From the NCBI GenBank assembly GCA_018653315.1, contig JABIAL010000035.1:1-50510 (forward strand): a DNA stretch of 50,510 bases. The letters are read 5' to 3'. The DNA comes from a bacterium (GTDB lineage: Bacteria > Patescibacteriota > Patescibacteriia > UBA1558 > GWA2-36-10). Position 1 is the stretch's first letter; every line of letters starts with the position of its first letter. This document shows positions 9,992 through 28,610 of the stretch, in pieces. A model generated the notes under the pieces. It did not search any database. It had not been told where the DNA came from and was given only the letters and a program-made list of their open reading frames with translations. A program made the position numbers and the translations under genes.

Positions 9992-10930
9992 ATGGAAATC
10001 CAAAAACCTAACAATGCAAAAATAACTTTTTTGTATTTACTATCTTTGGTAGCTCTAGTTTTTGTAGCTATTTCTTCTGGCATCGCTATCTTTCAAATGA
10101 TCAACAAATACATAGTTGATTTTGCAGCTACCTGGGGAGGTCGCTATTTAGATGAGGCCATGAAATTTGCTATCTCATCTTTGATTATTGCTACCCCTGT
10201 TTACTATGTGATAATAAAATTTATCAACAAAGAAATCGCCCACAAAAGACTAGATAATCACTCAGCAATTCGTCGCTGGCTTACTTACCTTATTTTATTA
10301 ATAACTGCTGTTATCATTTTGGTCTGGCTGATAATCACTTTAAATAGATTTTTTGAAGGTGAGTTGACAACTAAAAGTATTTTGAAAACTTTGACTATTC
10401 TGGTAATCTGCGGTGGCATATTTTCTTTTTACCTTTATGACATTAAAAGAAATCTTGAGATCAAAACTGCTGGTGTAAAAGTTTTCTTCTATAGCTCACT
10501 GATAGCTATCATCGTTGTATTAATTGGAGCATTTTTCACTATTGATTCTCCAAATACAGCAAGAAATCAAAGAATAGATAGCCAAACTGTTAATAAATTA
10601 AACAGCATTTATCAAGCTGTGAATGCCTATCATACCAATAAAGGCTCGCTACCATCTGACATGGATGAGTTATTAGAGCAAAATCTATACCCTATATCTG
10701 AAGATACAATTACAAACGAATATAATAATAAAAAAATAAAATACTTAATAATCAATGATACGAAATATGAATTATGCACTGACTTTTTAACTGCATCATC
10801 CAAGGAAGATATGGATTATCGATACGGCGCATTTGATGAAAGATGGAATCATGACAAGGGCTATCAGTGTCTTGAACTAGAAGTAAATAATAGAGGTAAA
10901 ACTATAAACGAAGTAGAGCTTATGCATTAA
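9992..10930 (+). CDS. Membrane protein, DUF5671-like, with C-terminal extracellular pilin-like segment
   Basis: FLYLLSLVAL, ISSLIIATPVY, IRRWLTYLIL, GELTT, SP..AR..RID, YELC..F motifs typical of a CPR membrane family. Confidence 0.65.
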   Translation: MEIQKPNNAKITFLYLLSLVALVFVAISSGIAIFQMINKYIVDFAATWGGRYLDEAMKFAISSLIIATPVYYVIIKFINKEIAHKRLDNHSAIRRWLTYLILLITAVIILVWLIITLNRFFEGELTTKSILKTLTILVICGGIFSFYLYDIKRNLEIKTAGVKVFFYSSLIAIIVVLIGAFFTIDSPNTARNQRIDSQTVNKLNSIYQAVNAYHTNKGSLPSDMDELLEQNLYPISEDTITNEYNNKKIKYLIINDTKYELCTDFLTASSKEDMDYRYGAFDERWNHDKGYQCLELEVNNRGKTINEVELMH

Positions 10931-10933
10931 ATA

Positions 10934-10976
10934 AAACAAAAAACACCCTGACTATAGTCGAGGGTGTTTTTTGTTT
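10934..10976. terminator. Bidirectional terminator between convergent genes
   Basis: aaacaaaaaacaccct / agggtgttttttgttt perfect inverted repeat. Confidence 0.88.
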
Positions 10977-10984
10977 AGAAAATT

Positions 10985-11221
10985 TTATTCAGACTCAACT
11001 TTAATAACATTAACTGGACAAGAAGCTTCAGCATTTAGATTATCTTCTAGGTCACTTTCGTGAATTTCTCCAACGTGCAAATCACCTTTTTTATCAGCTC
11101 CCTCTAGACTTGCCAAGCCATCTTCCTCACTTATCTTCCATGACTGAGGACAAAGCTGAGCACACATTGCGCAGCCGATACAATTTTGTCTATCATGAAC
11201 TACTTTATATTTTTTTGACAT
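10985..11221 (-). CDS. Ferredoxin (single-cluster 4Fe-4S type)
   Basis: CIGCAMCAQLCP plus distal SCPVNVI. Confidence 0.9.
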   Translation of the reverse strand: MSKKYKVVHDRQNCIGCAMCAQLCPQSWKISEEDGLASLEGADKKGDLHVGEIHESDLEDNLNAEASCPVNVIKVESE

Positions 11222-11229
11222 ATATATAT

Positions 11230-12495
11230 TTAATTTGAGCCTTCTCGTTTTTTTATTAGATAAAACTTATCTCCTTTACGCACTTTTTTATCTAAAGCTA
11301 TGGTTATTAATTCTTTTTTATCTGCTTTTTTAATTTCCTCTTCTTTTTCATTGCGAAGAGATTTTATTTTATCAAAAACAACTCCGGTTGTCACTCCGGT
11401 TATAGAAAAATTATCACCAAGCTTTGTATCTTGAGCTTGCAACTGAATTTCTACAATTTTATTTTTAGAAAAATAATTAGTCACTACACCAGCGAAAAAT
11501 TTTTCTTCACTAGACTGATTGCCAGCGCTTGCTGCCCACTCTTGCTCTGACCTACCAAGGTAATATCCATCACTAAATCCTCTATTAAATACTGTTTTTA
11601 GCTCTGCTTCTAGGGCTACTTTTTTATCTAAATTATATTCATTATTTTCTATGGCGATTAATGCTTCGCGATAAGCTTTTACTACTTTTGCTACATATTC
11701 TGGAGATCTACCTCGTCCTTCTAGTTTCAAAACTTGGACTCCAGCATCAATAAAGTCATCCAAAAAACCAATAGTGCAGATATCTTTTGGACTCATAATA
11801 TAATTATTATCTACTACTAGCTCTTGATTTGTTTCTTCATCTGTCACTTTAAATTTACGTCTGCAAGTCTGCTGACAAGCCCCTCTATTTGCAGAAGCGT
11901 TGTATTGGAACAAGCTCATGCTACAGCGTCCAGAAACTGCAATACATAAAGCTCCGTGAGCAAACATTTCTATTTTGACAAGCTCTCCACTCGGTCCAGT
12001 TATCTTTTCTTTTTTTATTTGTTTAGTAATTTTTTCTATCATCGGCAATGTCAATTCTCTAGCTAAGACAACTGTATCTGCATACTGTGCAAAAAATTTC
12101 ACTGCCTCTGTATTTGAAATAGAAACTTGGGTAGAAATATGCATTGGTATCTTTATGCTCTGGGCATATAAAACAGCTGCCATATCAGCTACAATCACTG
12201 CATCAATTTTTTCTGATTTAGCTGCGTCTATAATCTTTCGCATTAAAATTAAATCATGATCATACAAAATCGTGTTAACTGTTAAATAAGTTTTAACTTT
12301 ATGCTTACGACAAATTTGACCTATTTTTTTAAGATCATCAAAATCAAAATTAGCAGCTGCTACTTTACGCATATTAATTTGGCCAATACCAAAATATACC
12401 GAGTCAGCTCCGTTATCTATGGCCGCTTGCAAAGCCTCATAAGAACCGGCTGGTGCTAATAATTCTATATCTAATTTTTTCTTTACTTTTTTCAT
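11230..12495 (-). CDS. U32-family Fe-S protein (TrhP/RlhA-like RNA hydroxylation family)
   Basis: ELLAPAGS, GADSVYFG, HISTQ, LAREL, EMFAHGALCIAVSGRC, NRGACQQTCR, MSPKDIC, LKLEGR. Confidence 0.93.
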   Translation of the reverse strand: MKKVKKKLDIELLAPAGSYEALQAAIDNGADSVYFGIGQINMRKVAAANFDFDDLKKIGQICRKHKVKTYLTVNTILYDHDLILMRKIIDAAKSEKIDAVIVADMAAVLYAQSIKIPMHISTQVSISNTEAVKFFAQYADTVVLARELTLPMIEKITKQIKKEKITGPSGELVKIEMFAHGALCIAVSGRCSMSLFQYNASANRGACQQTCRRKFKVTDEETNQELVVDNNYIMSPKDICTIGFLDDFIDAGVQVLKLEGRGRSPEYVAKVVKAYREALIAIENNEYNLDKKVALEAELKTVFNRGFSDGYYLGRSEQEWAASAGNQSSEEKFFAGVVTNYFSKNKIVEIQLQAQDTKLGDNFSITGVTTGVVFDKIKSLRNEKEEEIKKADKKELITIALDKKVRKGDKFYLIKKREGSN

Positions 12496-12498
12496 ATC

Positions 12499-13167
12499 TT
12501 ATTTTTTAACAAAACAATTTATATTCCATTTGGTATGATAAACACCTTTTGGCTCTAAATTAAATTTAGATTTTTTTAATAAATTTTCTAATTCAGTCTT
12601 AGTAAAGCTATGATAGTATCGCCATAATTGTTTATTGTCTCCTGAATACTGTTGCCAAGAAACAAAAAAATCATTCCAAGCTTTTTTACGCCACCAAAAT
12701 TTAAAATAATTTTTCAAATACTTTTTTTGTAATAAATTCCAATTAGTCATAAATAAATAACCACCCGGTTTAAGCCAATGATTCATTTTCTTTAATAACT
12801 CAGCTCGATCTTTTCTGCTATCTAAATGATGAAAAGCAGCAATAGAAAAAATCATATCAAAACTTTCTTTTGGAAAATCTATCTTCCGTATATCGGCTAC
12901 TGTAAATTTATGATCAGGAAATTGTTGTTTGGCCTGACTAATTAAGCCCTCACTAAAATCAATGCCCGTGTAATCAATTTGTTTATTGCCCTCTGCTAAA
13001 GATTTCAATAAACGACCATTGCCACAACCCAAATCTAGTATCTTGAAATTATCCTTTATATATGGTATAAAAACTTGTAATTCTTCCCACGGAAAAACAC
13101 GTGAAGCTGAAAACTCCTGGGAAATCTGATTATACACTTCTTTTAATTGTTTAGTTGTTTTATTCAT
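12499..13167 (-). CDS. Class I SAM methyltransferase, Trm9/ALKBH8-MTase-like
   Basis: VYNQISQEFSASR..PW, LDLGCGNGR, SIAAFHHL, LKPGG..TNW, DFFVSW and RYYH.F...EL follow the Trm9 motif order. Confidence 0.8.
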   Translation of the reverse strand: MNKTTKQLKEVYNQISQEFSASRVFPWEELQVFIPYIKDNFKILDLGCGNGRLLKSLAEGNKQIDYTGIDFSEGLISQAKQQFPDHKFTVADIRKIDFPKESFDMIFSIAAFHHLDSRKDRAELLKKMNHWLKPGGYLFMTNWNLLQKKYLKNYFKFWWRKKAWNDFFVSWQQYSGDNKQLWRYYHSFTKTELENLLKKSKFNLEPKGVYHTKWNINCFVKK

Positions 13168-14776
13168 GGTAGATCAAAATATAATAGATAATATCGTCAA
13201 AGAATTAGCAGAATTAAATTTTGCTGATGATTTAGATTTTTCTACTACTTTGAGAAAAATATTCAATAAATACAAGATAGCTCCTCTGCCTAAGGCTACA
13301 TTGATTTCATCTTATCGTCAATTACTTAAAGATGGTGTTTTAGTTGAAGATAAAAAATTAACTCGTCTATTAATCAAGCGAGCAATTCGTACTTTATCTG
13401 GTGTTTCTGTAATAACGGTGTTGAGTAAACCTTTTGCTTGTCCTGGAAAATGCATCTATTGCCCAAGTGAACCAGATATGCCAAAAAGCTATCTATCTAA
13501 TGAGCCAGCGGCGATGCGAGCTAAGTTAAACTTATTTGACCCTATTCGTCAGATGACTATGCGGATTAAAGCTCTAGAAAATAACGGCCATCAAGTAGAC
13601 AAATTGGAAGTATTGGTTTTAGGCGGCACTTGGTCTGCTTATCCGGATGATTATCAACAAGAATTTATTCGAGATCTTTTCTATGCAGCTAATACCATGG
13701 AACAAAAAAAAGAACGTAAAAAATTATCCCTAATAGAAGAACAAAAAATTAATGAAGATACTAAATACAAAATTATTGGCCTAACTTTAGAAACTCGACC
13801 TGATTTTATTAATGAGGCAGAGATTAAACGAATGCGTAATTTAGCTTGCACCCGTGTCCAGCTTGGCGTCCAACATACTGATAATAAAATTTTGGATCTC
13901 ATCCAACGTGGTCACACTATTGAACAATCCATTAAAGCTACTCGTCTGTTAAAAGAAGTGGGCATCAAAATAGACCATCACTATATGCCTGACTTACCGG
14001 GCTCTACCCCTGCTAAGGATTTAGAAATGTTTAAATATGTTTTTAATTCTCCAGATTTACAACCAGATCAAATAAAAATATATCCTTGCATCGTCAATGA
14101 ATTTGCTGAATTAAATAAATGGCTAGAAGAAGGTAAATATAAACCTTATTCTAAAACTGAATTATTAAACTTATTATTAGAGGTCAAAAAAATAACACCT
14201 CCTTATGTCAGAATCAACAGATTGATTCGTGATATCCCTGAAGAAAGCATCTTGGCTGGAAACAAAATCACTAATTTACGACAAAAACTGCAGCAAGAGC
14301 TAAAAGAAGCAGGAGGATCCTGTAAATGTATTCGTTGTCGTGAAGTACGAAATGAAGAAGTTGATATAAATCAAATTGAATTGGTAACAAGAGAATATAA
14401 AGCCTCCCAAGGAACTGAATGGTTCTTGAGCTTTGAAAATGATGACCAGACAAAAATTTATGGCTTCTTACGCTTACGTATAAATGATGAGGTGGCTAAA
14501 AATATTTTCCCTGAGCTAGAAAATGCTTCTCTTGTACGCGAACTTCATGTTTATGGTAAGATGATCCCCGTCACTGACAGTAAAGATAAAGATAAAACTA
14601 TATTTAAAACTCAACATTTAGGTTTAGGTAAACGCTTGATGGCAGAAGCTGAAAAATTAACTTTAAAACAAGGATTAAATAAAATAGCTGTTATCTCAGG
14701 AATCGGCGTAAGAAATTATTATAAAAAACTTGGCTACAAATCAGAAGGTACTTATGTAACCAAAACATTAAAATAA
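13166..14776 (+). CDS. elp3: Elp3 tRNA uridine(34) carboxymethylase (radical SAM plus KAT domains)
   Basis: RTLSGV, CPGKCIYCP, PKSYLSNEPA, GGTW, ETRPD, QLGVQ, HYMPDLP, KIYP, RLIRDIP, CKCIRCRE, VRELHVYG, QHLGLGKRL, SGIGVRNYY. Confidence 0.95.
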   Translation: MVDQNIIDNIVKELAELNFADDLDFSTTLRKIFNKYKIAPLPKATLISSYRQLLKDGVLVEDKKLTRLLIKRAIRTLSGVSVITVLSKPFACPGKCIYCPSEPDMPKSYLSNEPAAMRAKLNLFDPIRQMTMRIKALENNGHQVDKLEVLVLGGTWSAYPDDYQQEFIRDLFYAANTMEQKKERKKLSLIEEQKINEDTKYKIIGLTLETRPDFINEAEIKRMRNLACTRVQLGVQHTDNKILDLIQRGHTIEQSIKATRLLKEVGIKIDHHYMPDLPGSTPAKDLEMFKYVFNSPDLQPDQIKIYPCIVNEFAELNKWLEEGKYKPYSKTELLNLLLEVKKITPPYVRINRLIRDIPEESILAGNKITNLRQKLQQELKEAGGSCKCIRCREVRNEEVDINQIELVTREYKASQGTEWFLSFENDDQTKIYGFLRLRINDEVAKNIFPELENASLVRELHVYGKMIPVTDSKDKDKTIFKTQHLGLGKRLMAEAEKLTLKQGLNKIAVISGIGVRNYYKKLGYKSEGTYVTKTLK

Positions 14777-14790
14777 TGTTATAATTAATT

Positions 14791-14833
14791 TATGAAAAAT
14801 TAATCTTACACTATGAAAAAAATTAATCTTACA
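14791..14833 (+). repeat. Tandem duplication of a gene start
   Basis: tatgaaaaattaatcttaca (14791-14810) and tatgaaaaaaattaatcttaca (14812-14833). Confidence 0.85.
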
Positions 14834-15025
14834 TTACTAATAATCCTGAGCATCTTTCTTGTTACTGGTTGCACTCAAAATACAAATAATACACCACGAA
14901 TGACTCAGGAAGAATGCGAAAAAAATGGACAGAAATGGACAGAAATTTGTCCAATTTGTGAAAATTGTGAATGTCTATATCTTTGCCTTGAACTTGAAGA
15001 GGAAGGATTAGGAGAGTTAAAATAA
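14813..15025 (+). CDS. Small Cys-rich lipoprotein
   Basis: MKK, hydrophobic stretch, LVTGC lipobox; EECEKNGQKW..ICPICENCECLYLC. Confidence 0.7.
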   Translation: MKKINLTLLIILSIFLVTGCTQNTNNTPRMTQEECEKNGQKWTEICPICENCECLYLCLELEEEGLGELK

Positions 15026-15031
15026 TATCTT

Positions 15032-16294
15032 ATGAAAAACCTACAAAATACAGATCCGCAAATAGCGGAGATTATAAAAAAAGAGCTCAATCGCCAACGC
15101 AATGGCGCTGAAATGATTGCCAGTGAAAACTTTGTTTCTCAGGCTGTCTTGGAAGCGGCCGGCTCGGTACTGACCAATAAATACGCTGAAGGTTATCCGA
15201 ACAAACGTTACTATGGCGGTAACGAATTTGTTGATCAATCCGAAATCTTAGCTATTGAACGAGCTAAGAAACTTTTCGGCGCTGAACATGCTAATGTCCA
15301 GCCACATTCTGGCTCTACAGCCAATGCCGAAGCTTATTTTGCTTTATGTGATTTGCACGATACTATTTTGGGATTCTCTTTAGCTCATGGCGGACATTTG
15401 ACTCATGGTCATCCGGTAAACTTTTCTGGTAAGTCATACAACTTTGTTAGCTATGGAGTAGATAAAAAAACAGAGCTAATAGATTTTGATGAAGTAGAGG
15501 CACAAGCCAAAAAACATAAACCAAAGGTAATTCTAGCTGGCGCCTCTGCTTATTCTCGACAAATTGATTTTGCCAGATTCAAAGAAATAGCTGACAGTGT
15601 TGGTGCTTACTTAATGGTAGACATGGCTCACATTGCCGGTCTAGTTGCCACCAAGCTTCATCCTGATCCAGTCCTCTATGCTGATGTAATTACAACTACT
15701 ACTCACAAAACTTTACGTGGTCCACGTGGTGCTTTGATTTTGTCTAAAATAAAAGACCATATAAATCCAGATGACAAAAAGAATCTAGCTCGCAAAATAG
15801 ACTCAGCTGTTTTTCCGGGATTACAAGGTGGCCCACTAGAGCATATCATTGCTGCTAAGGCCGTAGCTTTTGAAGAAGCTTTACAGCCAGAATTTGCAGT
15901 TTACCAAAAACAAGTATTGGCTAATGCTAAAACTTTAGAAAATAAATTTAGAGCCGCTGATATTAGAATGATTTCTGGTGGTACTGATAATCATTTATTA
16001 ATGATCGATGTCACTCCACTTGGATTGTCTGGCCAAGAAGCTGAAACTTTACTAGATCAAATTCATATTTTCACTAACAAAAATCTAATCCCGTTTGATA
16101 CACGCAAACCAATGGATCCATCTGGCATTCGTTTGGGAACTGCTGCTTTGACTAGTCGTGGCCTGAAAGAGACTGACATGGAGATTATCTCTGATGTTAT
16201 TATAGATGTCTTGAAAACTAAACAAGCAAGTGAAGAAAATAAACAAAAAGTTTTAGACTTGATGAATAATTTTCCTCTTTATCCTGAATTATAA
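15032..16294 (+). CDS. glyA: Serine hydroxymethyltransferase
   Basis: [38 protein letters not shown]. Confidence 0.98.
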
Positions 16295-25726: not shown

Positions 25727-26752
25727 TTACCTAATAAACATCGCATCACCAAAAGAAAAGAAGCGATATCTTTTTTCAACTGCCTGACTATAAGCTGTCA
25801 TGATATTTTCTCGGCCGGCTAAAGCTGAAACCATAAATAATAATGAACTTTTTGGTAAATGAAAATTAGTAATCAATTGATCAATAAATTTATATTTATA
25901 GCCAGGATAAATATAAATATTCACCCATTTATCTCCATGCTCTAAAATATTTTTTTCTGTCGCAAAAGATTCTAATGTTCTTGCAGCTGTTGTACCAACA
26001 GCAATAATGTTTTTTCTTTGCTGTTTTAATTTATTTAATTTTTCGGCTGTAGTTTTTGAGATACTAGCCCACTCACTATGAATCTGATGCTCTTCGATGT
26101 CATCTACCTCTACTGGAGCAAAAGTTCCTAGACCAACATGTAAAGTAACGGTCAAGATTTCTACACCTTTAGCTTTTATTTTCTCTAAAAGCTCTGGTGT
26201 AAAATGAAGACCAGCTGTAGGAGCAGCTACTGAACCTTTATTTTTTGCAAAGACTGTTTGATAGTCTTTTTTTATTTGCTCGCTGTCCTCTGTTTTGATA
26301 TATGGGGGCAGAGGAGTGCTACCAATTTCTTCTACGCATATCGAAAACTCTTCGTCAGCCAAATTAAATTTTACTTTTTTTGTTTTGCCGTTTATATTTT
26401 CTATAATCTGTCCTGACAAATCTTGTTCAAAATAAATTTTGTCATTTATTTTTAAACCCCGTCCACCAATCATACACTCCCAAGTGTGTTTATTAATTTT
26501 CTGAGTTAAAAAAACTTCGACTTGGCCACCAGTCTTTTTCTTGCCCTGTAATCTAGCTGGGAAAACTTTCGTTTCATTTAAAACTAAAACATCGTCTTTG
26601 TTTAAAAGCTCCGGTAAATTATAAAAATACTTATCTTCATTTTCTCCCGTATTTTTATCCAAAACTAAAAGCCGTGAGTGATCACGGGGTGAAGCTGGCT
26701 TCTGAGCAATAAGCTCTTTTGGTAAATTGTAATCAAACAAGTCTATTTTCAT
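25727..26752 (-). CDS. queA: S-adenosylmethionine:tRNA ribosyltransferase-isomerase
   Basis: FDYNLPKELIAQ, PLPPYI, YQTVFA, AAPTAGLHF, LHVGLGTF, VGTT, TNFHLPKS, YRFFSFGDAM. Confidence 0.98.
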   Translation of the reverse strand: MKIDLFDYNLPKELIAQKPASPRDHSRLLVLDKNTGENEDKYFYNLPELLNKDDVLVLNETKVFPARLQGKKKTGGQVEVFLTQKINKHTWECMIGGRGLKINDKIYFEQDLSGQIIENINGKTKKVKFNLADEEFSICVEEIGSTPLPPYIKTEDSEQIKKDYQTVFAKNKGSVAAPTAGLHFTPELLEKIKAKGVEILTVTLHVGLGTFAPVEVDDIEEHQIHSEWASISKTTAEKLNKLKQQRKNIIAVGTTAARTLESFATEKNILEHGDKWVNIYIYPGYKYKFIDQLITNFHLPKSSLLFMVSALAGRENIMTAYSQAVEKRYRFFSFGDAMFIR

Positions 26753-27306
26753 AATTTAGCTTTTAAATCTCTGTTTCTTTTAGAAAATAAACAACCACAA
26801 TAATCTTGACGATAAAATCCTTCTTCTTCGCTAAGTTTACAAGCTATTTTAAAACCTTCGTTTTTCTTCCAGTCTCGATCTAGAAAATCTATTTTAAATT
26901 TATCAGCTATTCTCTGACCAATTAAACTAATCTGCTTAGCGTTTTTGTGAGGACTGATAGTCAAAACCGTAGCAAAAGCATCATAACTCTCATCTTTAGC
27001 TTTACGGGCAGTTTCTCCTAAACGAATATCAAAACAAACATCACAACGCTTTCCTTTTTCTGGTTCTTTTTCTAAACCTCTAGTTTTTTGAATCCAATTA
27101 AAAGTATCATAAGGTCCTTCGATAAATTCCAGCTTTAATTTTTCAGCATAACCCTTCATCTCATCGCGTCTCTGAATGTATTCTGCTCGAGGATGAATAT
27201 TGGGATCATAAAAATAAACAGTTACTTGCCACTCGGACATTAACTGCTGTAAAACATATATTGAACATGGTGCACAACAAGAGTGCAATAACAATTTCTT
27301 TTTCAT
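26749..27306 (-). CDS. queH: Epoxyqueuosine reductase QueH
   Basis: LLLHSCCAPCS, FYDPNIHP, RC..C...RL, SPHK, YRQDYCGC. Confidence 0.93.
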   Translation of the reverse strand: MKKKLLLHSCCAPCSIYVLQQLMSEWQVTVYFYDPNIHPRAEYIQRRDEMKGYAEKLKLEFIEGPYDTFNWIQKTRGLEKEPEKGKRCDVCFDIRLGETARKAKDESYDAFATVLTISPHKNAKQISLIGQRIADKFKIDFLDRDWKKNEGFKIACKLSEEEGFYRQDYCGCLFSKRNRDLKAKL

Positions 27307-28610
27307 AAATCAGATAAAACCTTTATTGGCGCTAGATAAATATCAGTATAAGAAGTAGGAGCATTTAAAGGTATGATTCCTCTAGCATAAGCTATCATAA
27401 GTAAACCATTTAAAACAAGCCCTGTAAATACCAGTCCAATAATAACTATTTTTATATATTTCTTTTGATTTAGGTATTTAAATAAAAATGCAAACCCTAA
27501 AATAAAGACAAATAAAGAACCGGCCATGCGTCTAGCACCAAAAGATCCACCACCATACCAATCAGATAGGCCAGAATTTATATAAGTCTGCAAACACAAA
27601 GCTAGGATTAGTAAAATAACTAGATATTTGTATTTTTTCAATGCATAAAACAATCCAATAATGGCCAAAATCAACAATGGATGAATGATAAACATGCCAT
27701 GATAACTAGAAAAAAGAAACTGCCAGATATGCGGGTGAGTAAGATCAAAAAAAGATGCTCCTTGCGGTACAGCGATCCATGCTCCATAAAGGTGCTTCCA
27801 CATCAACAGCTGTGGCAAGGCAATAAGAAAAAAGAAACTGATAAAAATACTTGCTGATAATAAATATTTATGCCAATTTTTCAATAGCCATAATTTATAA
27901 ACTACAATGCCTATTGGTATCACGCCAAATAAAACATCTTGCCAACGAACTAAAAATACTAAACCCAGAGCTAAGGCTGAAAAAGTTAAATATTTATAAT
28001 TAATCTTTGGACTTTTGTATAACTTAATTGAATAATAAAAAAGTAATGCTAGTGAAAAAACTGTTAGCCCGTGCGACATGCTTGGCTCATAGATCAAATA
28101 AAAAGGAATCGGTGATATAGCAGTAGCAATCAAAGCGCCCCACCAAACATACTTTTTATCAACTAATTTTTTTAGAGTTTTAAATATTAAGGCAATGCCA
28201 AATAAAAAATAAAACCAGGTGCCTAAGGCAATTGCTATTTGAAATGGTAAATTATATCCTGAAATGGCATAAGGATCCTCAAAGTGCCAAATAGTACTAA
28301 TAAATTTTGCCAATAAAATAAACGGACTCCATAAAATAGCAGACCCAATGGCAAAAGGATTACCAGTTTTACCAGTATCTGTCTGCCAGCCTACTGTGGT
28401 GTTATGATTATATAATTCATCAAATAAAGAAAACTCATTGTGCAAATCAAAATTGCCATCAAAGATCAAAGACCTGGCATAACTATAATAACCAAAACCA
28501 TCTCCACCAATCTGCCATGACGGTCTTAAAATAGCCACTGATATAATCAGGGCTAAAATCAAAACTATTAATAAAGTGAATATGTTATATTGTGTCTTTA
28601 TCTTAAACAT
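27303..28610 (-). CDS. Multi-TM GT-C fold glycosyltransferase-like membrane protein
   Basis: GDG..YYSYARSL..DG.FD first external loop, about 11 TMs, W.GG.SFGARR. Confidence 0.7.
   Translation of the reverse strand: MFKIKTQYNIFTLLIVLILALIISVAILRPSWQIGGDGFGYYSYARSLIFDGNFDLHNEFSLFDELYNHNTTVGWQTDTGKTGNPFAIGSAILWSPFILLAKFISTIWHFEDPYAISGYNLPFQIAIALGTWFYFLFGIALIFKTLKKLVDKKYVWWGALIATAISPIPFYLIYEPSMSHGLTVFSLALLFYYSIKLYKSPKINYKYLTFSALALGLVFLVRWQDVLFGVIPIGIVVYKLWLLKNWHKYLLSASIFISFFFLIALPQLLMWKHLYGAWIAVPQGASFFDLTHPHIWQFLFSSYHGMFIIHPLLILAIIGLFYALKKYKYLVILLILALCLQTYINSGLSDWYGGGSFGARRMAGSLFVFILGFAFLFKYLNQKKYIKIVIIGLVFTGLVLNGLLMIAYARGIIPLNAPTSYTDIYLAPIKVLSDL

Follow-up and report, generated by a model that had tools for sequence, protein, structure and literature searches.

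Does a bacterium of the candidate phyla radiation (CPR) modify its wobble uridines with an enzyme pair of the archaeal and eukaryotic kind, and do the two redox genes packed against that pair belong to the same pathway? The question is raised by a four-gene block in a 50,510-nucleotide (nt) stretch of patescibacterial DNA (contig JABIAL010000035.1 of assembly GCA_018653315.1, lineage GWA2-36-10), referred to below as the window, which encodes Elp3, a Trm9-like S-adenosylmethionine (SAM)-dependent methyltransferase, a U32-family Fe-S protein and a ferredoxin. In the textbook division of C5 modification of the wobble uridine (xm5U34), MnmE and MnmG act in bacteria, and Elp3 or Elongator acts together with Trm9-Trm112 in archaea and eukaryotes. 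The original prediction for this locus joined all four genes in one wobble-uridine pathway. We found that its Elp3 and Trm9-like half stands, by gene linkage and conserved residues, and that its U32 and ferredoxin half does not, the adjacency being confined to a single genus. The block is two independent modules lying side by side in one genus and not one pathway. To the explanation that we favor, an xm5U34 pathway of Elp3 and a Trm9-family methyltransferase beside a separate U32-ferredoxin unit, we assign a probability of about two in three; the chemical steps given below are proposals read from gene content and residue conservation.

The open reading frame (ORF) list gives exactly four packed genes, as had been described, and the Pfam and NCBIfam scans upheld the family names given to Elp3, the U32 protein, the ferredoxin and the methyltransferase. 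Gaps of 8 nt (11222-11229) and 3 nt (12496-12498) separate U32 from the ferredoxin gene and from the methyltransferase gene, respectively, and elp3 is divergent. All four genes are single-copy in the host assembly (G000; 880,741 bases in 39 contigs, 96.57% complete), of which the window is contig 16.

The first module is defined by the linkage of the methyltransferase gene (12499-13167, minus strand, 222 amino acids) to elp3 (13166-14776, plus strand, 536 amino acids), the two ATG codons of which share 2 nt head to head (13166-13167). Elp3 exceeded its cut-off in 38 of the 41 genomes of the order, host included, and the methyltransferase gene was divergent from and adjoining elp3 at all 30 of the best Elp3 loci (the host and 29 relatives, seven families). 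Beyond the order, a methyltransferase profile scan of species-representative genomes of the phylum yielded 80 loci, all in CPR-type records. A divergent elp3 lay at most 400 nt away in 58 of them and 466-2860 nt away in nine, and one locus had an adjacent co-directional elp3, which brings linkage to 68/80 and adjacency to 59/80; ten loci had no elp3 within the flanks, and in two the upstream sequence was too short. The pairing is strongly conserved across Patescibacteria.

The distribution of the genes was assessed in 301 genomes sampled evenly across the phylum, with the methyltransferase counted at E up to 1e-25; the genomes are mutually related, so we give counts without a statistical test. 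Elp3 was over the cut-off in 119 genomes, the methyltransferase was present in 97 and MnmG in nine. Elp3 and the methyltransferase occurred together in 91 genomes, Elp3 alone in 28, the methyltransferase alone in six (one of which, G309, carries a truncated elp3 beside the methyltransferase gene) and neither in 176. Where both were present, the genes lay within 500 nt of each other in 65 genomes, within 5 kb in 12, and elsewhere or on another contig in 14. None of the nine MnmG genomes had Elp3 or the methyltransferase. The Elp3-Trm9 pairing is therefore wider than first proposed, extending over much of the phylum instead of marking a single locus. Separately, approximately 173 of the 301 genomes had neither Elp3 over the cut-off nor MnmG, and many Patescibacteria may lack any known xm5U34 pathway.

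In the host, the Elp3 and methyltransferase route would stand in for MnmE/MnmG. MnmG was not found in the host genome, and the best MnmE matches there, at 96.6 and 94.9 bits, fell below the cut-off of 252.6; both sit in one 453-residue frame, which we take to be a Der-like double GTPase. Together with the conserved linkage and the Trm9 residues described below, the failure to find MnmG in this genome agrees with the earlier proposal of a eukaryote/archaea-like Elp3 plus Trm9-like route in a CPR bacterium. MnmA is present (394.6 bits), and the host has the expected set of U34 tRNAs, namely Glu-UUC, Gln-UUG, Lys-UUU, Arg-UCU, Gly-UCC and Leu-UAA. MnmA would add the 2-thio group on the Glu, Gln and Lys tRNAs, giving a hybrid 5-methoxycarbonylmethyl-2-thiouridine (mcm5s2U), and the likely product of the pathway is mcm5(s2)U34, made without Trm112. 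As to the tRNA set itself, ARAGORN detected 41 tRNA genes in the host but no CAU anticodon among them, which leaves the initiator, elongator Met and lysidine-type Ile tRNAs unaccounted for; the CAU tRNA genes may be unassembled. The host also has tRNA-Ile(UAU), and a UAU isoleucine tRNA would itself need wobble modification.

The product of elp3 matches TIGR01211 at 543 bits (cut-off 350), and the Pfam scan found PF04055, PF16199 and weak matches to GNAT domains. Its nearest solved relative is Methanocaldococcus infernus Elp3 (393.7 bits), followed by Dehalococcoides mccartyi Elp3 (369.2) and eukaryotic Elp3 (334, from residue 7). The radical-SAM Cys triad, the CxCxxC linker and the QHxGxG stretches align between the host and M. 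infernus proteins. Like the M. infernus and D. mccartyi enzymes, which act as stand-alone radical-SAM/GNAT proteins, host Elp3 keeps the Cys triad and the linker Cys motif. It is nearer to the archaeal enzyme than to that of D. mccartyi and differs from the latter by approximately 70 N-terminal residues without a counterpart (the alignment begins at residue 71). By these features, host Elp3 is a full-length archaeal-type radical-SAM/GNAT enzyme and a putative tRNA U34 C5-carboxymethyl synthase. C5-carboxymethylation with SAM and acetyl-CoA has been shown for archaeal and other Elp3s, and the host enzyme would likewise use these substrates to add a carboxymethyl group to C5 of wobble uridines. 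The N-terminal region of Elp3 has been tied to tRNA binding in papers that include a 2020 review (PMC7663514). In contrast to both the M. infernus and D. mccartyi enzymes, host Elp3 is paired with a Trm9-like gene, and we found no paper mentioning such a pair for bacteria.

Pfam and NCBIfam recognized the methyltransferase by generic class I models only (Methyltransf_25 and Methyltransf_11), and an ESM Atlas search returned generic methyltransferase clusters only, from CPR, Chloroflexota and archaea, which we treat as a lead at most. Compared alone with solved structures, the protein had its best full-length match in Y. lipolytica Trm9 (5cm2_Z, 63.3 bits). A family profile (A1) built from 40 members again placed 5cm2_Z first (101.7 bits, E 3.6e-28), at the top of 164 distinct solved-structure sequences at E up to 1e-5; the runners-up were a two-domain plant enzyme (82.4 bits) and single-domain proteins (77.7). 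The AlphaFold model of the methyltransferase has a mean predicted local distance difference test (pLDDT) score of 93.8, and in a Foldseek search with this model Trm9 ranked second with a target-normalised template modeling (TM) score of 0.83, the highest among the matches listed; rank 1 was an uncharacterised Methanosarcina methyltransferase. When only proteins longer than 439 residues were considered, the first 14 matches were unnamed or glycosyltransferase-named fusions, after which the best tRNA-named relatives were insect ALKBH8 proteins (125-130 bits, 95% query coverage). One close homologue carries the source name 'alkylated DNA repair protein alkB f...'.

Residues that matter in Trm9 are conserved in this family. 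The mutagenesis passages of the Trm9-Trm112 structure paper report that yeast Trm9 is impaired by R29A, D72A, H116A, W145A, W168A, R241A, Y243A and N271A, and the paper models Y18, H115 and N271 at the site of 5-carboxymethyluridine (cm5U) (PMC4678810). In alignments with both Trm9 and ALKBH8, Trm9 R29, D72, H116, W145, W168, R241 and Y243 correspond to host R23, D45, H114, W143, W171, R183 and Y185, and host Y12 and H113 also align with Trm9/ALKBH8 residues. Of nine residues that matter in yeast Trm9, the host protein retains eight. Across the 40 family members, Y12, R23, D45, H113/H114, W143, R183 and Y185 show little or no variation, whereas W171 is W in the majority of rows and otherwise Y or F. 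The N-terminal motif VY..I...FS.(S/T)R..PW, the HH pair, W143, RYYH and the SAM-binding DLGCGNG of Trm9/ALKBH8 are all kept in the host.

The host enzyme thus shares its fold and full-length sequence kinship with Trm9-Trm112 of yeast, ALKBH8-TRMT112 of animals and HvoTrm9-Trm112 of Haloferax volcanii, and it shares with Trm9 systems a gene association with Elp3, an Elp3-Trm9 cluster of Sulfolobus solfataricus being mentioned in PMC6144793. It differs from Trm9/ALKBH8 in lacking an AlkB or RNA recognition motif (RRM) domain and in the position of the Asn corresponding to N271, which is displaced by two residues. Also unlike Trm9 systems, its host is a bacterium that uses MnmA for thiolation and not Ncs6/Ctu1, although Ncs6 was not searched for. 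We propose that the protein is a Trm9-family enzyme and a candidate carboxyl methyltransferase converting cm5U34 to 5-methoxycarbonylmethyluridine (mcm5U34). From the conserved Trm9 substrate-binding residues and the linkage to Elp3, we infer that it esterifies cm5U34 to mcm5U34, and it would do so without a Trm112 activator. In some genomes, a Trm9-like methyltransferase is seemingly fused to a WecB/TagA/CpsF-type glycosyltransferase (PF03808) in proteins of 470-540 amino acids (P0241-P0254, one named from Gracilibacteria); these could be real fusions or merged gene calls.

That no Trm112 partner is visible near the methyltransferase had been remarked in the original prediction, and the same is true genome-wide: the best PF03966 match in the host genome scored 15 bits against a cut-off of 22. 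Nor was a small zinc-ribbon partner evident beside the methyltransferase in the relatives, since the 80 loci held 17 small ORFs with two CxxC motifs, none of them recurrent, and one zinc-ribbon ORF type appeared in three loci only, 2-3.6 kb from the methyltransferase gene. In both respects the host differs from Trm9-Trm112 systems. The 15-bit match, the single Trm112-like sequence that the genome yielded, is the zinc ribbon at the N terminus of a 303-amino-acid methyltransferase fusion on contig 35 (L046:751-1662, minus strand), whose neighbors, judged by eye, are a 381-amino-acid glycosyltransferase and a 242-amino-acid O-methyltransferase-like protein.

The U32 gene (11230-12495, minus strand, 421 amino acids) does not share the distribution of the pair. 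A search of 41 genomes of the order turned up the U32 protein in 14, as against 38 for Elp3, and its gene adjoins the Elp3/methyltransferase pair in two of those 14, the host and its congener G001, which are also the only two of the 41 with the full four-gene block. In the other 12, U32 either occupies another contig or lies 16-133 kb from elp3, and away from elp3 it often sits between ruvA-like and dnaN-like genes, as identified by eye from translations. Among the 80 methyltransferase loci, none had U32 within 4 kb and none had a ferredoxin match. Close U32 orthologues also occur in genomes without Elp3, namely G059, which has MnmG, and G085. Thus, the U32 module would not act on the Elp3/Trm9 product.

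The protein matched PF01136 at 227 bits and, below the cut-off, PF16325 at 16.9 bits; DUF3656 was not detected, and no other family appeared in the Pfam scan. Against NCBIfam it scored 183.5 bits for TrhP (cut-off 534), 178.4 for UbiU (cut-off 440) and 53.3 for UbiV (cut-off 275), and a phmmer search against solved structures gave no match at E up to 0.001. By BLASTP it is 33% identical to E. coli RlhA (U32 domain), 30% to UbiU and 27% to TrhP. Close orthologues at 53-57% identity also occur in records named Bacteroidota, Spirochaetia and DPANN archaea. A quick maximum-likelihood tree of 45 sequences, with the four E. coli paralogues as references, placed it in a 27-row clade (Shimodaira-Hasegawa-like approximate likelihood-ratio test, 99) of CPR sequences together with proteins whose names refer to Marinifilum, Spirochaetia, Hydrogenedentota, Woesearchaeota and Nanoarchaeota. 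E. coli TrhP was elsewhere in the tree with a different CPR U32, RlhA and UbiU were long branches outside the clade, and UbiV was far off. The protein consequently does not group with the rRNA-specific RlhA, having a clade of its own and no DUF3656. Set against the equivalog cut-offs and the four E. coli paralogues, its sequence is that of an uncharacterised subfamily, none of TrhP, RlhA, UbiU or UbiV.

Its conserved residues suggest what kind of chemistry it performs. Host E176, C184, C191, C207 and C211 align with TrhP E162, C170, C177, C193 and C197 and are invariant in 32 U32 orthologues. TrhP E162, C170 and C177 and the matching residues of RlhA are described as essential in PMC6599085. 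With TrhP (E. coli YegQ) and the TrhP proteins of B. subtilis trmR-trhP2-trhP1, the host protein shares a U32 domain in which the essential Glu and Cys are kept, a similar length and a U32 plus U32_C-like layout; the U32 Fe-S motif is also common to RlhA, which makes 5-hydroxycytidine (ho5C2501) in 23S rRNA, and to UbiU/UbiV of anaerobic ubiquinone hydroxylation. It differs from TrhP in its score, far below the equivalog cut-off, and its place in the tree; from RlhA in lacking DUF3656; and from UbiU/UbiV in falling below both cut-offs and having no second U32 paralogue as a UbiV-like partner. We regard it as probably an O2-independent hydroxylase, most likely acting on an RNA pyrimidine or another aromatic carbon, and an RNA pyrimidine is our leading guess for the substrate.

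The host genome is of interest for such a reaction in two respects. Neither chorismate synthase nor a CM_2-type chorismate mutase was found in it, and no route to prephenate is therefore evident; if the U32 protein makes 5-hydroxyuridine (ho5U), the prephenate required by TrhP and RlhA would come from outside or be unneeded. A TrmR-type methyltransferase (PF01596, Methyltransf_3) was not found, and there was no CmoB over the cut-off, so that no known enzyme would carry ho5U, if made, any further. This is a difference from B. subtilis trmR-trhP2-trhP1, which makes ho5U34 and then 5-methoxyuridine (mo5U34), as is the Trm9 type of the methyltransferase neighboring U32 in the host. Ala and Pro are each read by a single U34 tRNA in the host, which would fit a role of the 5-oxyuridine (xo5U) type.

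The ferredoxin gene (10985-11221, minus strand, 78 amino acids) encodes a single-cluster [4Fe-4S] type (Fer4_15, 44.4 bits; Fer4_13, 36.9 bits), with C14, C17, C20 and C68 invariant in 10 orthologues. It is the only ferredoxin among the ORFs of fewer than 200 amino acids with CxxCxxC in the host, the other such ORF being a 70-amino-acid lipoprotein-like sequence. The ferredoxin gene lies directly downstream of U32 in nine of 12 close-orthologue genomes within the order and, in the phylum sample, at four of 10 close-orthologue loci and none of 19 loci with a more distant U32, making 13 of 22 close-orthologue loci overall. The ferredoxin is the probable redox partner of the U32 protein and would exchange electrons with its cluster. 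Full TrhP-dependent ho5U reportedly requires the ferredoxin YfhL (Lauhon, J Bacteriol 2019). Such a partner is plausible given that TrhP carries a redox-active [4Fe-4S] cluster, as stated in PMC11138216. A complex prediction for U32 (alignment A3) and ferredoxin (A2) scored 0.00, which gives no verdict, and was used neither way. Most of the relatives G001-G040 have a second, more distant small ferredoxin (approximately 30 bits to the profile), which was not found in the host assembly.

Several observations weigh against the two-module explanation or parts of it. Placement of the methyltransferase in the Trm9 clade comes from ranking and residues and not from phylogeny. Its invariant N215, just before the last strand, is two positions off Trm9 N271 and the ALKBH8 Asn in both alignments, and N271 is proposed in the structure paper to read O2 and N3 of U34 (PMC4678810). 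Trm9 requires Trm112 in yeast and Haloferax, as noted in PMC6144793, and activity of the host enzyme without Trm112 is an assumption. The methyltransferase is missing from 28 of the 119 Elp3 genomes, so that some lineages manage with Elp3 alone; in family f34 (e.g., G057, G084 and G109), each of the 15 sampled genomes has Elp3 and none the Trm9-like methyltransferase, and these lineages presumably end at cm5U or use another finishing enzyme. In its passage on bacterial Elp3, the 2020 review states that there is no evidence for Elp3 products in Dehalococcoides (PMC7663514). As for the separateness of the second module, genomes with any U32 are enriched for Elp3 (50/61, as against 119/301 overall), a co-occurrence that could reflect shared ancestry or a real link, and strong orthologues of the ferredoxin occur in G005 and G017, where the host U32 query matched nothing.

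The last observation bears on the alternative that survives best, although we consider it unlikely, in which the ferredoxin serves mainly as reductant for the radical-SAM cluster of Elp3 and of other radical-SAM enzymes. Such enzymes need a low-potential electron donor, this is the only small ferredoxin found in the host assembly, and a role of this kind would explain why a U32-ferredoxin unit settled beside elp3 in this genus. In the nine U32-bearing genomes of family f1, however, the ferredoxin gene is directly downstream of U32 and, outside the genus, not near elp3, and most Elp3 loci lack such a ferredoxin close by, the 80 methyltransferase loci having given no ferredoxin match.

It is distinctly unlikely that the methyltransferase, while linked to Elp3, modifies another position or substrate, the Elp3 product staying cm5U or becoming 5-carbamoylmethyluridine (ncm5U). 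The generic Pfam/NCBIfam models, the failure to find Trm112 in the host, the inexact alignment of N271 and the Elp3 genomes without the methyltransferase all speak for such a job. Against it stand the seven Trm9 substrate or catalytic residues kept, invariant or nearly so across 40 members, together with the ranking of Trm9 as the best full-length solved relative and of ALKBH8 as the best tRNA-named long relative.

A PrtC-type role of the U32 protein as a genuine peptidase or collagenase, with no part in RNA modification, appears very unlikely. The source names 'collagenase' and 'putative protease' do occur among its relatives, and close relatives are found in Bacteroidota, the phylum of P. 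gingivalis, whose PrtC is classed as PepU32#4 in the family scheme of PMC5727448. However, the Glu and Cys residues essential for hydroxylation by TrhP and RlhA are invariant in the host U32 family, and a dedicated ferredoxin partner suggests redox chemistry.

The single four-gene pathway of the original prediction, in which U32 and ferredoxin replace the AlkB domain of ALKBH8 and convert mcm5U to 5-methoxycarbonylhydroxymethyluridine (mchm5U) without O2, is highly improbable. The 3- and 8-nt gaps, the same gene order in the congener and the frequency of Elp3 among U32 genomes speak for it. UbiU and UbiV act on quinone rings, and we know of no U32 factor that acts on a side-chain methylene. 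The characterised U32 factors hydroxylate C5 of U or C in the reactions described in PMC6599085 and PMC5727448. They thus act on ring carbons, whereas mchm5U would need attack on the side-chain methylene. The linkage, moreover, is genus-specific, present in two of the 14 U32-bearing relatives and at none of the 80 methyltransferase loci, and close U32 orthologues occur without Elp3 in G059 and G085, with others in the Bacteroidota, Spirochaetia and DPANN-named records. The substitution for the AlkB step was therefore not upheld. A related idea, to us a long shot, is that the modules have merged in this genus because both work on the same tRNAs, with U32-ferredoxin needing neither O2 nor prephenate to hydroxylate what Elp3 and Trm9 make, whether to mchm5U or to some new derivative; in a weaker form, the ferredoxin would be the common electron donor of Elp3 and U32. 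If true, merged modules would do anaerobically what the AlkB domain does in ALKBH8, by a chemistry new to U32 proteins.

We give next to no credence to the other alternative offered at the outset, that the U32 protein makes ho5U34, which the adjoining methyltransferase converts to mo5U in the manner of B. subtilis TrhP1/TrhP2 and TrmR: the two genes are 3 nt apart on one strand, but the methyltransferase follows Elp3 and not U32, co-occurring with and adjoining elp3 in genomes without U32, its conserved residues are those of a Trm9-type carboxyl methyltransferase, and it is below the reporting threshold for the TrmR-type Methyltransf_3, PF01596 being absent from its 17 matched Pfam families and not found in the genome.

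Some features of the locus and its surroundings stand apart from these considerations. The spacing between elp3 and the methyltransferase gene in relatives is typically 2-60 nt. Because the head-to-head start codons overlap in the host, both promoters must sit within the partner's coding sequence. A consensus promoter scan of 10700-15100 found 11 promoter-like sites, fewer than the mean of 20.1 in shuffles, and none where these two promoters should sit, so this promoter/terminator scan leaves the transcription of the overlapping divergent pair unexplained. From 8587 to approximately 11990, the window is 100% identical at the nucleotide level to G001 contig 27 over approximately 3.4 kb, a stretch spanning a bestrophin-like gene, a 184-amino-acid ORF, a DUF5671 gene, the ferredoxin gene and the 3' two-thirds of U32. 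Identity between the two genomes is 72-92% over the remainder of U32, the methyltransferase gene and elp3, and 75% on the other side. The identical tract reflects either a recent recombination ending within U32 or cross-assembly of the two genome bins. Elsewhere in the window, queA (25727-26752, minus strand) and queH (26749-27306, minus strand) overlap by 4 nt, with ruvB just upstream of the run, and a 435-amino-acid ORF without a Pfam match (27303-28610, minus strand) precedes queH, again with a 4-nt overlap, and may have a part in queuosine metabolism.

Bacterial Elp3, the chemistry of Trm9 and an Elp3-Trm9 cluster from an archaeon were already known. A literature search, which did not extend to the supplements of the U32 papers, found no paper describing a bacterial or CPR Elp3-Trm9 pair, in agreement with the earlier statement that the combination was not known to be characterised; the one preprint with both 'Elp3' and 'Patescibacteria' places elp3 in Thorarchaeia. 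We likewise found no paper on the scale of Elp3 in Patescibacteria, the mutual exclusion of Elp3 and MnmG, the back-to-back pairing with a Trm112-less Trm9 or the hybrid with MnmA. The frequencies of Elp3 (119/301) and MnmG (9/301) in the sampled Patescibacteria contrast with the passage of the 2020 review that confines bacterial Elp3 to Dehalococcoides (PMC7663514). The U32-ferredoxin unit, in a host in which chorismate synthase and a CM_2 chorismate mutase were not found, provides a test case for whether U32 hydroxylation factors need prephenate. If the proposed chemistry of the Elp3-Trm9 module holds, Trm9 would work without Trm112, offering a simple single-subunit system in which to study Trm9 and Elp3, and a large bacterial radiation would make mcm5(s2)U via archaeal-type C5 enzymes and bacterial MnmA.

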